In this document: positions 4,055-42,409 of the stretch, piece after piece
Position numbering within the stretch: the first letter of the stretch is position 1
Layout of the letters: the number at the start of each line of letters is the position of its first letter
NCBI GenBank assembly: GCA_964631415.1
Contig: CAZVZC010000004.1
Location: 17,658-81,657, forward strand
Reading direction: 5' to 3'
Source: an uncultured archaeon
GTDB taxonomy: Archaea; Asgardarchaeota; Thorarchaeia; Thorarchaeales; Thorarchaeaceae
DNA: 64,000 nt
Notes under the pieces: generated by a model
Told to the model about the DNA's origin: nothing
The model's input: the letters and a program-made list of their open reading frames with translations, nothing else
Databases searched by the model: none
Made by a program: the position numbers and the translations under genes

Positions 4055-4999
4055 TCAGGCATGCTTCGGGAAGAACACGCCCAAGTTGCGCGGCAGCATA
4101 TCGAGGTCTTCGAGTATCGAGAGATGCTGTAGTTTCTTCACTGTTTCAGGCGGCAGTTTCTCGCGTGTTACGCCTTCGAGAAGCATAGCGGTTTCTTGCT
4201 CCGAGAACTCCTCTCGGTCCTCAATCCATTTCAGGAACTCCTTGTCGACTGGACATACTCTCTGGCAGCGAAGGCAGCCCTCAATGCAGTTGTGCCACGA
4301 GGGTTTCATCCAAGCAGGAAACGGAATGTCACCCGGCCGCTCATTATGAAAGACGATGCAACGCTCTGCACGTAAGAGGAACCGGTCAGACGGTATGGCA
4401 CCCGTGGGACACGCCTTGCGGCAGACTTCACACGATTCGCAGGCCTTCATCATTGTGGGTTCTTGCCACTTATCCTCGGAACAGGGCATATCAGAGTAGA
4501 CAGCAACAAGTTGGAGAAAGCTTCCCATTCCGGGCACATAGCAGACATTGTTCCGACCGTACTGAGCCAGACCACTTCGCGCCGCCAAGAGTTTGAGCGG
4601 CAGACCTGTCTTTGCCACTCTGTAGCCCTTCTTCTCAAGAATCGTGCCTAACAAGCCCGCAGTCTGTTGCATGATTTCGTCATAGGCTGTATATGTTGGC
4701 GGAAGAATGAGCGATCGCTTCTGTCCGCTCCAAGTGAAAGTGGCTTGAGTCTGCGGCCGAGGAACTGCGACGATGATCAACGACTGAGTGTTTGGCAGTT
4801 GCTCAGGCACCTTGAAGTCGAACCATGCGAGACGTAGCTTGTAGAACTCCCGGTCAAGCTCCTCTCGCTGATAGCGCGACTCAATCTCATCTCGCAGCGA
4901 ACGAACGTGTTCGGCCGATACAGTGCGGACACGATAACCGCGCTCCCTCAGGGGTCGAAACAATAAATCGTCAGTTGGATTCATGCCAAACGACACCAA
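4055..4999 (-). CDS. QueG/reductive-dehalogenase-like 2x[4Fe-4S] protein
   Basis: KLLAARSGLAQYGRNN motif and two cluster motifs, CESCEVCRKACPTGAI and CIEGCLRCQRVCP. Confidence 0.8.
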   Translation of the reverse strand: MVSFGMNPTDDLLFRPLRERGYRVRTVSAEHVRSLRDEIESRYQREELDREFYKLRLAWFDFKVPEQLPNTQSLIIVAVPRPQTQATFTWSGQKRSLILPPTYTAYDEIMQQTAGLLGTILEKKGYRVAKTGLPLKLLAARSGLAQYGRNNVCYVPGMGSFLQLVAVYSDMPCSEDKWQEPTMMKACESCEVCRKACPTGAIPSDRFLLRAERCIVFHNERPGDIPFPAWMKPSWHNCIEGCLRCQRVCPVDKEFLKWIEDREEFSEQETAMLLEGVTREKLPPETVKKLQHLSILEDLDMLPRNLGVFFPKHA

Positions 5000-13177: not shown

Positions 13178-14129
13178 TGTTGCTGTCCTCCACCATCTTC
13201 ATGAAAATCTCTTCAAGCTCATACTGCTTCAAGCCGAAATCCACGACGTCTACGGTGTCATCTGCCATTACTGTCCTCAGGAGCTTCTTCCTAGCCATCG
13301 AATCATCGCTCACACTGACGACCCATTGCGTTTTGTCCTTGGCCTTCTTCTCGGTAATGCCTGTCACCCAAGGTTCCTTGGAGAGCCGTGCGTATGCCTT
13401 CTGGGGGTTTCCTTCCAGTGTGAGTGTATAGGCCACACCTTCGCTACCGGCAAGAAGCTGACCAATCGGTGCCTGCGCTATCATCCGGCCTTTGTTCAAG
13501 ATTGCCACAGTGTCGCTGACTCGCTGCACATCATCCAGGATATGAGTGCTGTAGAATATGGTCGATTCAGAACGTAACCCCTCCATGATCTTGAGAACGT
13601 CCTCTCTTCCTTCAGGATCAAGGCCCGCGGCAGGCTCGTCAAGGATCAGAAGCTCTGGATAGTTAATCTGGGCCTGAGCGATTCCCAGCCGCTGCATCTC
13701 TCCACCAGAGAAACCCTCAATCAGCCGGTCCGACTTGTCCTCGAGCTCCACAACCGAAAGAAGCTGCTCTATTCTCTCCTCGATTTTGTCACGTGGTCCT
13801 TTGAAGTAGAAACGCGCAGCAAAGCGCATGGTTTCTCTTGCCGTCATCTCTTTGTAGAACTTAGGATGCTGAGCAAGGTACCCCACTCCTCTTCTGACCT
13901 CGTTACTGTTCTGAACAATGTCATAGCCGAGCACGGTTCCACCGCCAGTTGTCGGCTTCGTGAGACCCACCAGTAGTTTGATTGTGGTGGTCTTTCCAGC
14001 CCCATTGGGTCCAAGGAAAGCAAAGATCGAATTCCTTGGAACTCTCAGATTGAGCGAACTCAATGCAGCAACGTCCCCGTATGTCTTGCCGAGCTCCTGA
14101 GTGCTTATCACGAATGACTGTTGGCTCGT
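13164..14129 (-). CDS. ABC-2 transporter ATP-binding protein
   Basis: GPNGAGKTT, FSGGEMQR, ILDEP. Start is ACG 14129 (7 nt after GAGGCGA) or GTG 14111. Confidence 0.92.
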   Translation of the reverse strand, partial: TSQQSFVISTQELGKTYGDVAALSSLNLRVPRNSIFAFLGPNGAGKTTTIKLLVGLTKPTTGGGTVLGYDIVQNSNEVRRGVGYLAQHPKFYKEMTARETMRFAARFYFKGPRDKIEERIEQLLSVVELEDKSDRLIEGFSGGEMQRLGIAQAQINYPELLILDEPAAGLDPEGREDVLKIMEGLRSESTIFYSTHILDDVQRVSDTVAILNKGRMIAQAPIGQLLAGSEGVAYTLTLEGNPQKAYARLSKEPWVTGITEKKAKDKTQWVVSVSDDSMARKKLLRTVMADDTVDVVDFGLKQYELEEIFMKMVEDSNNVAQ

Positions 14130-14182
14130 GTCAGAATCGCCTCTTTCTCTTTGAATGAGCGTCGTGGCTTGCCGGGGTCGTG

Positions 14183-40274: not shown

Positions 40275-40568
40275 TCACGTTGGCTTGATCTCGCCTGCAC
40301 GCCTCAACTCAAACACTACCACGTTGCCCGGGTCTGGACATGCCACAGAGGTGCGATCCGGATCCTTTCCCCAAGGAAAAGCACCACCGAACTCGAGGAC
40401 GGTGACGAATGGAAGCATGGAGTTGTACGCCCAGCGACAGACCTTTGCCCTCTCGCTGTCTTTCGACAGGTCAAACTCGTCACCCACTTTGTAGAGCTTG
40501 CACGGACTCTCTCCTTGCTGGGCACGAAGTTCTGCGACACGTGCAATTATCCGGTATCTCTTTGTCGT
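40275..40568 (-). CDS. TIGR04076-like small Cys protein
   Basis: PCKLYKVGDEF, CRWAYNSMLP, ACPDPGNVVVFEL. The conserved-looking N-terminus needs a start upstream of GTG 40487; ACG 40568 fits. Confidence 0.8.
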   Translation of the reverse strand, partial: TTKRYRIIARVAELRAQQGESPCKLYKVGDEFDLSKDSERAKVCRWAYNSMLPFVTVLEFGGAFPWGKDPDRTSVACPDPGNVVVFELRRAGEIKPT

Positions 40569-40590
40569 TCTTGCATCACCATCCGAAACA

Positions 40591-42240
40591 TCACTTTACC
40601 TCGCGAAGCTCACGTCGCAGTATCTTCCCCACGGCACTCTTCGGCAGTGAGGAAACAAAAGAGATGATGCGAGGGTACTTGTAGGCAGCCATATGCTCCT
40701 TGGCCCACTCCTTGATCTCATCCTCAGTGACCTTTCCTTCGTACTCAGGCTTCAGTCTGATGAATGCCTTGATTGTTTCACCTGCCGCCGGGTCTGGAAT
40801 GCCGATGACTCCAACTTCAGCGACTGCGGGATGTCTGTAGAGGAGATCCTCCACCTCCGCTGGGAATACCGAGTACGCCTTGTACTTGATGAGGTCTTTC
40901 TTCCTGTCGCCGATGTACACATAGCCGTCTGCGTCAAAGCGGCCGATGTCGCCAGTGTGCATCCAACCCCCTTTCAGCGTCTCATCGGACTCCTTCTCCT
41001 TGTGCCAGTAGCCAGCCATCACCTGTGGGCCTCGAATCAGGATTTCACCCCATTCACCAATTGCCATCTCCTTGGCATCATTCGTAGTGTCCACTATCTT
41101 GATGTCAGTGTTGAAGATTGGGAGGCCCACGCTTCCTGGCTTCAAGACACCCTCCGGAATAAGAGTCTGTATTGGCGAGGTTTCTGTCATTCCGTATCCT
41201 TCGACTATGTATATTCCTGTGAGCCGCTGAAACTGCTCCAGAATCTCAACAGGGAGAGGCGCAGCGCCGGAGAAAGCATGCTTCAGGGACTGCAGCGTTT
41301 CTTTCTTGAGGTCAGGCCGCCCTAGCATTGAAACATACAGTGTTGGCACTCCAACGAGTACCGTCGCTCCATACTTCGGGATTACGTGAAGGACCTCCTT
41401 TATGTCGGGTCTTGGGATCATTATGATACTGGCCGCTATGTACGAGGCCAGTACAAGCACACATGAAAGGCCAAATGCGTGAAAGAACGGAAGGACTCCC
41501 ACAAAGCACTCCTTGCCCTCATTGACCTTGAACCACCTACGACCCGCCTCTGCGTTGAACATCAAGTTGCGGTGCGTCAGCATCGCGCCCTTGGGCATAC
41601 CCGTGGTCCCTCCTGTGTATAGCAGAGTGGCAACATCATCTGCGCCAAGAATGTTCTCAGGGGGTGTCACGGGCTGGTCAGACATCAAATCCTGAAAAAG
41701 ACGGATCTCAGGTCCAACCGGTAACGTTGGGTGCTCGATCTTGCCAACAAGCTTGCCCAAAACAGCCTTGGCTTTCGGCAGATATTCACCTGTCCTCGTA
41801 TAGACTACTGTCTGAACTTCTGTGCCCTTTCTCCCTTTCTCAGCAACCTCATGGAACATGTCCAGAGCCACAAGAATCTTGGCTCCAGTGTTCTCAAGTT
41901 GATGGTGAAGCTCGAGTTCCTTGAGCAGTGGATTGACTGGTGAAATCATTGCCCCTGCTTTGAAAGCGCCGTAGAAAGCAATAGGAAACTGCGGCAGGTT
42001 GGGAACCATGATTGCTACTCTATCGCCCTTCTCGATGCCCAAGCCCAATAGAGCATGAGCGAACTGATTACTCATCTCATCGATCTGTCTGTAGTTTATC
42101 GTCTTGCCCATGATGTAGAAAGCGGGATGACTGGGAAACCGCTTGGCAGTAGTCATGAAAGTTTCATGAATTGTTACGTTGGGAACCTCGATATCATGTG
42201 GCAAGCCCTTCGGCCAGCTGTTCTGCCAGAACCTCTCCAT
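40591..42240 (-). CDS. fadD: long-chain fatty acid-CoA ligase
   Basis: YTGGTTGMPKGA, EGYGMTE, HTGDIG, LPKSAVGKILRR. Confidence 0.93.
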   Translation of the reverse strand: MERFWQNSWPKGLPHDIEVPNVTIHETFMTTAKRFPSHPAFYIMGKTINYRQIDEMSNQFAHALLGLGIEKGDRVAIMVPNLPQFPIAFYGAFKAGAMISPVNPLLKELELHHQLENTGAKILVALDMFHEVAEKGRKGTEVQTVVYTRTGEYLPKAKAVLGKLVGKIEHPTLPVGPEIRLFQDLMSDQPVTPPENILGADDVATLLYTGGTTGMPKGAMLTHRNLMFNAEAGRRWFKVNEGKECFVGVLPFFHAFGLSCVLVLASYIAASIIMIPRPDIKEVLHVIPKYGATVLVGVPTLYVSMLGRPDLKKETLQSLKHAFSGAAPLPVEILEQFQRLTGIYIVEGYGMTETSPIQTLIPEGVLKPGSVGLPIFNTDIKIVDTTNDAKEMAIGEWGEILIRGPQVMAGYWHKEKESDETLKGGWMHTGDIGRFDADGYVYIGDRKKDLIKYKAYSVFPAEVEDLLYRHPAVAEVGVIGIPDPAAGETIKAFIRLKPEYEGKVTEDEIKEWAKEHMAAYKYPRIISFVSSLPKSAVGKILRRELREVK

Positions 42241-42409
42241 TTTGCACACGTCCGGGATTAGCTAGATGAAACTATACTAACCTGCAGACCCGGGATATAA
42301 CAGCATTGCCCAATCAAGTGAAACAAAGGCATGTTGACCTCCAGACAAAAACGATTTGTGCCAGCAATACTATGCACCTGATTACTGAAACGCTCTTGGA
42401 GAGGACTAC

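Follow-up and report, generated by a model that had tools for sequence, protein, structure and literature searches.

In eukaryotes and viruses, translation can initiate at the near-cognate codons ACG or CUG, as is the case for VP2 of AAV and the C' protein of Sendai virus. In bacteria, ACG is among the poorest initiators, and archaea select their starts using homologues of eIF1, eIF1A and eIF2. Plant organelles create an AUG start from ACG by C-to-U RNA editing, a process that needs PPR-DYW editing factors. Neither standard gene finders nor NCBI table 11 allow a gene to start with ACG. Among the rare non-standard starts of bacteria is the AUU of infC, which comes with autoregulation (PMC4705826). 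In ribosome profiling of Haloferax volcanii, ~30% of the putative alternative initiation sites were near-cognate, and these were set aside as possible false positives (PMC7261190). Our full-text literature searches returned no report of ACG starts in archaea or in Asgard archaea specifically.

The gene described here lies in a stretch of 64,000 nucleotides of Thorarchaeota DNA (hereafter, the window), which is part of an 85.8-kb contig of a metagenome-assembled genome (MAG; label G000; 2.16 Mb in 81 contigs, 85% complete). It belongs to the TIGR04076 family by profile match, and extends on the minus strand from an ACG codon to a TGA stop (40275..40568; 97 codons plus stop). An in-frame TAA stop is found upstream (40596..40598, minus strand), after which the frame runs for 36 codons (SDVSDGDARTTKRYRIIARVAELRAQQGESPCKLYK) without ATG, GTG or TTG, up to GTG 40487-40485 (minus strand; Val28). 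This GTG is the first standard in-frame start and the one used by the NCBI annotation, giving a 70-aa product (P0125); CTG is also absent from the segment between TAA 40598-40596 and GTG 40487. The first-pass annotation of this DNA had noted both the lack of a standard start before GTG 40487 and an ACG lying 7 nt after a Shine-Dalgarno-like GGTGA, and a reading of the frame confirmed both: the ACG, our proposed initiation codon (40566..40568, minus strand), is separated by a 7-nt spacer from GGTGA 40580-40576, which extends to GGTGAT at 40575 (40575..40580, minus strand). Since the 3' end of the 16S gene (the anti-Shine-Dalgarno) is masked, we derived the Shine-Dalgarno motif and its spacing empirically. 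In this genome, the most frequent spacers before the first ATG, GTG or TTG of long open reading frames (ORFs) are 7-10 nt for GGAGG and 6-7 nt for GGTGA, and the spacing at the ACG thus matches the genome's own peak.

We put at roughly 0.7 the probability that the gene is intact and expressed and that its translation starts at ACG 40568-40566 as a trait of this lineage. Lying 6-7 nt upstream, the GGTGAT motif would pair with the 3' end of the 16S rRNA and place the 30S subunit, and the ordinary initiator Met-tRNA (anticodon CAU) would then take ACG with one mismatch, at the middle base, yielding a 97-residue protein that begins with Met. In this Thorarchaeota genus, start changes from ATG to ACG behind a good ribosome-binding site would be tolerated and would persist across species, such that ACG would behave as a weak but usable start codon. 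Orthology of ACG and ATG, independent assemblies, ribosome-binding site spacing, purifying selection and recurrence in other genes carry the argument, and from them we infer that the ribosome actually starts at ACG and that Met-tRNAi decodes it.

In having ACG where AUG is expected, presumably read by Met-tRNAi with one mismatch, and in needing a favourable context, this arrangement resembles eukaryotic near-cognate initiation. It differs in relying on a Shine-Dalgarno motif within an operon, with no Kozak context or scanning, and in that ACG would be the sole start of housekeeping genes rather than the start of an alternative isoform. With the rare bacterial starts (infC AUU; CTG, ATT, ATC and ATA of table 11) it shares a weak codon behind a ribosome-binding site and conservation in relatives, but ACG is outside NCBI table 11 and nothing points to a regulatory role in these genes. 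The H. volcanii sites are near-cognate codons in an archaeon, but that study did not establish them as conserved main starts and does not mention ACG (PMC7261190).

Upstream of the TIGR04076 gene, on the same strand, lies a gene for an acyl-CoA ligase of the AMP-binding family (40591..42249, minus strand; Pfam PF00501 and PF13193, NCBIfam long-chain-fatty-acid--CoA ligase models). Its stop is only 22 nt before the ACG, and the two genes are therefore probably in one operon. The ligase neighbour is also present in the three sister lineages introduced below (A, B and O), beta-oxidation-type genes adjoin the TIGR04076 gene in all four lineages, and the downstream neighbour encodes a membrane protein of the phosphodiesterase/sulfatase superfamily. 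In the short interval after the ligase, three ATGs of another frame (40591, 40582 and 40576) open a mini-ORF that ends at TAA 40549-40547; counted from ATG 40591, which overlaps the ligase stop by one base (TGATG), it has 14 codons (40547..40591, minus strand). In G002, a genome of the same genus, the equivalent mini-ORF terminates at a TGA that overlaps the ATG start of the TIGR04076 orthologue. The 14-codon mini-ORF is probably a by-product.

The start of the gene can be compared among four lineages: that of the window (W); the same-genus G002 (O; Thorarchaeota OWC3, PRDI01000129.1); lineage A (L021, L022 and L025, from ENA, NCBI (GCA_964354515.1), JGI and Logan contigs); and lineage B (L023 and L024, from ENA and JGI contigs). 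The proteins of O and W are 95% identical, and their DNA is 88% identical over 3.3 kb and gap-free near the start, where the same codon is ATG in O and ACG in W (AAGAATGACAAAG vs AAGAACGACAAAG). In four other genera, the orthologues begin MTK/MTM/MPK..YRII at the same column. The alignment of orthologues, which the first-pass annotation had proposed as a check, thus finds ATG at this codon both in G002 and in the four other genera, and the ACG of W occupies the ancestral start position.

Lineages A and B have ACG at this position as well. Six codons upstream of it there is TCG in W (40584..40586, minus strand) and in O, and TTG at the same place in A and B; having TCG and not TTG, W is without any standard start. 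The gene callers picked this TTG in A and B, where it lies 4 nt after the ligase stop, and the resulting products have 103 residues. In front of this TTG, no Shine-Dalgarno motif is found at the normal distance. The motif before the ancestral start, GGTGAT in W and GGTGGT in the other three, persists in each lineage, with ATG or ACG alike. The six codons from TTG to ACG vary mostly non-synonymously (TTG/TCG, GAG/GAA/GAT, GGT/GAT, GCA/ACA), and they appear to vary as an untranslated leader would.

ACG also occupies the start column of other genes of this genome. Six of them lie outside the window, each on the minus strand and with its ACG behind a GGAGG or GGTGA motif. In atpD (C5:27414; ACG C5:27412-27414), W and O have ACG, whereas G001, G003 (both of the same genus) and 11 other genera have ATG, and one has TTG; the ACG follows GGAGGTGA by 6 nt, a stop lies 2 codons upstream, and the next standard start is within the conserved TRMEL motif. 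In rpoL (C14:14094; ACG C14:14092-14094), W and O have ACG 8 nt after GGAGG, G001 and G003 have TTG, and almost all others have ATG or GTG. In cbf5 (C33:5447; ACG C33:5445-5447), W and O have ACG, relatives have ATG or TTG, and the next standard start is 34 codons downstream. An HdrB-like gene (C38:11240; ACG C38:11238-11240) has ACG in W and O and ATG in four relatives. Two further genes have ACG in W and ATG in O: one for a signal-peptide protein (C21:19404; ACG C21:19402-19404), in which the starts of other relatives are not at the same column, and one for a membrane protein (C54:5435; ACG C54:5433-5435), which has ATG in G001 as well and its next standard start 43 codons downstream. With the column only approximate, nop2 (ACG in W and O, standard starts nearby in relatives) and an ITPase gene (ACG in W and O, and in G001 and G003 too, there at the ancestral ATG column) can be added, bringing the ACG-start genes shared with the sister species G002 to six of eight. 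Essential genes such as these cannot all have become pseudogenes, and initiation at ACG must therefore be possible in this genus, either directly or after conversion. Two other candidates were rejected, C16:17012 because its spacer is too short and C60:4304 because its N-terminus is not alignable. In a separate observation, the rpoL of a different genus (L074, G006:C18) has CTG in the start column, behind TAGGAGG.

To place these genes in a genome-wide frame, we counted codons lying at least 4 positions before the first standard start in 1798 ORFs filtered by codon usage. ACG was the top non-standard codon after a Shine-Dalgarno match of at least 6 nt (7/205, vs 76/13334 overall; Poisson P=2e-4), and it also came first with matches of at least 5 nt (16/205 vs 393/13334; P=5e-4). 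The runners-up among codons preceded by such a motif were ACA (5) and CTG (4), and the enrichment of ACG itself rests on small counts. From the genome-wide counts, the ACG-start trait would touch roughly 1% of genes. In cruder tests (5-mer Shine-Dalgarno motifs with ORFs of at least 150 codons, or triplets after 6-mer motifs), shadow ORFs and intragenic motifs overwhelmed the signal, with ATG itself enriched only 1.19-fold, hence the need for the codon-usage filter. The first-pass annotation had regarded this gene as the strongest of several such cases in the window; within the window that claim is weakened, as an ABC ATPase gene (14111-14143, minus strand) has a usable GTG, but at the genome scale the pattern is real. 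The ATPase was set aside as ambiguous: its ACG lies 7 nt after GAGGCGA, and GTG 14111, five codons downstream, gives a normal N-terminus.

Since the nearest relatives, lineage A, have an upstream TTG that W lacks, W could have lost its true start recently. Under this scenario, which we consider unlikely, the start of the sub-clade was the TTG six codons upstream, a TTG-to-TCG change removed it, and the gene is a fresh pseudogene, silent or barely translated and not yet decayed. Such a loss would fit the position of the TTG in A and B and the shortness of the window's branch (about 12 codon changes). It would also fit a gene that may be dispensable, given that an orthologue was not found in two of the three same-genus genomes, G001 (93% complete) and G003 (88% complete). 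However, G002 combines TCG with ATG at the ancestral position, making TCG an ordinary leader state, and the TTG itself has neither a normally spaced motif in front of it nor, in the six codons after it, anything but non-coding-like variation. The substitutions point in the same direction: the window's own branch carries 10 synonymous and 2 non-synonymous codon changes (neutral synonymous fraction 0.23, P=2e-5), by which measure the TIGR04076 gene is under purifying selection on that branch. Between W and A, the gene body has 18 synonymous and 5 non-synonymous codon differences. Counting the other way, the sole window-specific change within the first 27 codons is non-synonymous (Pro18 to Gln). 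The essential atpD, rpoL and cbf5, which cannot be dead, show the same ACG-only arrangement.

The order of the lineages was read from the flanking genes. The ligase protein of A is 97.8% identical to that of W, that of O 95.5% and that of B 88.2%, and the downstream gene agrees, which suggests the order ((W,A),O),B; on this order, both the start-codon and the TTG/TCG characters would be homoplastic. Nothing would need explaining if all four lineages start at the ACG/ATG column and the TTG/TCG site is mere leader. Apart from the start, codons 55-91 (window 40275-40415) contain five synonymous or conservative states that W has in common with the distant B, against A and O, suggesting either recombination or the sorting of an old polymorphism at the locus.

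Returning to initiation at ACG, we examined what the protein itself says of its N-terminus. The stop-to-stop product scores 68.2 bits against NCBIfam TIGR04076 (cut-off 33), covering profile positions 4-89 of 91; among Pfam models, none matches it. The profile match starts at the first I of YRII, about codon 7 counted from the ACG, and the family domain thus includes the residues encoded ahead of GTG 40487. Across 35 aligned sequences, C23, C44, C77, G62, P65 and W66 are invariant, and the GG.FPW motif is present in the 97-residue ACG product. Like other members of this family of small proteins with conserved Cys (about 85-100 residues), the window protein passes the cut-off and has three invariant Cys; unlike the family at large, it falls in an Asgard subgroup whose members have a longer tail and a 5-residue insert (ELRxQ). 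The AlphaFold model of the 97-residue product has a pLDDT of 94.4, with residues 5-16 forming the first long strand. According to this model, a start at GTG 40487 would delete strand 5-16 along with the invariant Cys23, and the N-terminal 27 residues are needed for both. The description of a family-typical N-terminus, including the first Cys, ahead of GTG 40487 is therefore upheld by the TIGR04076 match and the invariance of Cys23, and the homologues do carry the 27 residues in question. As for the fold, a Foldseek search of the PDB gave nothing below E=0.5, and VIA-align ranked the N-terminal domains of XdhC-type proteins highest, with a Z of 6.0-6.3 that does not reach the noise guide of 8, a weak likeness between the predicted structure and these domains.

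These features bear on the use of a different start codon, namely ATA 40550 or ATT 40547, which are in the gene's frame downstream of the ACG and are minor table-11 starts, or GTG 40487 with a product of 70 residues, a reading that we find quite improbable. NCBI table 11 accepts ATA and ATT as rare prokaryote starts, the ATA column is GTG in lineage B, and in the shortest bacterial homologues only 2-3 residues precede the IARV strand; yet the two codons are 24-27 nt from the Shine-Dalgarno motif, have none of their own, and stand in columns that are not the start in any orthologue except for the GTG of B. GTG 40487 was the choice of the NCBI pipeline, but starting there would take strand 5-16 and Cys23 from a confidently folded single domain, and the codons that it would delete stay conserved among the four lineages. 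Where the earlier annotation had allowed for initiation at ACG or at the nearby ATA/ATT, ribosome-binding site spacing and orthologous position favour the ACG.

Even with ACG as the start, it might be read by something other than ordinary Met-tRNAi. In conserved genes the ACG of the genome coincides with the start column, as it does in plant-organelle editing, and it is ACG, rather than another near-miss codon, that recurs at start positions. It is very unlikely, in our view, that ACG was made a true start in this Asgard lineage by a dedicated device, be it a CGU initiator-type tRNA (a 3' half with this anticodon is on contig C73 and could belong to a split or intron-bearing gene), C-to-U editing or, in a milder form, low stringency tuned via aIF1. 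We likewise regard as highly improbable a mechanism that renders ACG cognate, either by editing the mRNA to AUG or through an initiator-type tRNA with anticodon CGU. Searching the MAG with ARAGORN and Rfam RF00005 recovered 25 tRNAs only, with no initiator and no complete initiator tRNA gene among them. At least five partial 3' halves of an initiator-type tRNA were found (G000:C73:640-705 on the minus strand, C60:6455-6517, C79:16-70 and 4326-4361, and C64), one of which, the C73 copy, carries anticodon CGT (G000:C73:685-697) instead of CAT. However, this copy is a 3' half only, has a T-stem mismatch and a C at position 72, and no 5' half lies nearby; it overlaps the end of a 434-aa ORF without a Pfam match, whose stop codon is supplied by the anticodon loop. 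A complete CGU-anticodon tRNA gene with initiator hallmarks was not found in the MAG, and a 5'-half-like match at C15:14265 was rejected as a chance match within a membrane-protein ORF. Every copy is either on a small contig or at the end of a contig, a placement also seen in attachment-site repeats of integrated elements, and the neighbours include an Nmad3-domain protein and a C39-like peptidase; such repeats are probably what they are.

As for editing, to our knowledge no mRNA editing has been described in archaea. PF14432 (DYW deaminase) had no match in G000 (85% complete), in a search whose control matched no genome either, and among clustered public sequences there is no A-type protein with Met at this column. 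Two side observations concern tRNA genes. In relatives of the same family, the initiator tRNA genes appear to contain introns at non-standard places, in the D-loop (L177, L178 and L180) and/or in the T-loop (L178, L179 and L182), and for this reason ARAGORN misses them. In the MAG, ARAGORN predicts two tRNA-SeC genes (anticodon TCA), one of them at G000:C16:14846-14936.

A consensus or assembly error at one base, the true sequence being TTG at 40586-40584 or ATG at 40568-40566, is scarcely credible. A single T-to-C call would suffice, and no second assembly of the window's species was found: looking up the 70-aa product by exact match and scanning metagenome and genome contigs for patterns gave only A, B and O. 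Nevertheless, TCG and ACG are both natural states of sister lineages from independent assemblies, and the alignment is free of indels. The assembly error that the first-pass annotation had weighed is countered by sister lineages A and B, whose independent assemblies have the same C in the ACG; the ACG is thus not a base-call error peculiar to this MAG. Nor can random error explain why at least six other genes of the MAG, four of them identical in G002, have ACG in their start column. An indel or frameshift as the cause was likewise rejected, since the region aligns without gaps to the three sister lineages. Entry from the out-of-frame mini-ORF (ATG 40591 or 40576), whether through a -1 shift at CAAAG or through termination and reinitiation at the TAA overlapping ATT 40547, deserves next to no weight: the base shared with the ligase stop (TGATG) is a classic coupling arrangement and the terminal TAATT overlaps an ATT in the gene's frame, but there is no slippery heptamer, the mini-ORF of G002 simply stops at the ATG start, lineage B is without the first ATG, and no relative needs a change of frame.

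If ACG works as a start in Asgard archaea, gene finders restricted to ATG, GTG and TTG would truncate or miss proteins. Here, the NCBI product has 70 residues against 97 and is without an invariant Cys, and AtpD, Rpo11 and Cbf5 would be cut likewise. The locus also amounts to a compact natural experiment, in which the four lineages share a leader but differ in what follows or precedes it as a start: ATG (O), ACG plus a TTG further upstream (A and B), or only ACG (W).

A weak start is found, too, in a gene for an initiation factor of these archaea. The aIF1 (SUI1) gene of the family starts with CTG (10 genomes) or GTG (8 genomes), 9-10 nt after CAGGAG, and CTG is the start in all members of the genus in which an aIF1 gene was found. 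The loci compared were L195-L213, and in the MAG (L207, G000:C16:28626-31838) the start lies ~85 nt upstream of the SUI1 match at C16:30126. Genus-specific substitutions in aIF1 (Q for E after CVC, NTD for NID, no basic C-terminal tail) were also considered as a source of altered stringency and dropped, since none could be matched to a residue known to affect stringency. The CTG comes one codon after a stop in three genomes, with the CPxC zinc knuckle six codons further on. By these comparisons, the CTG and GTG of aIF1 are weak starts in regular use in this Thorarchaeota family. The aIF1 start recalls that of infC and, by analogy with the infC AUU or with the poor start context of eIF1, may serve autoregulation.
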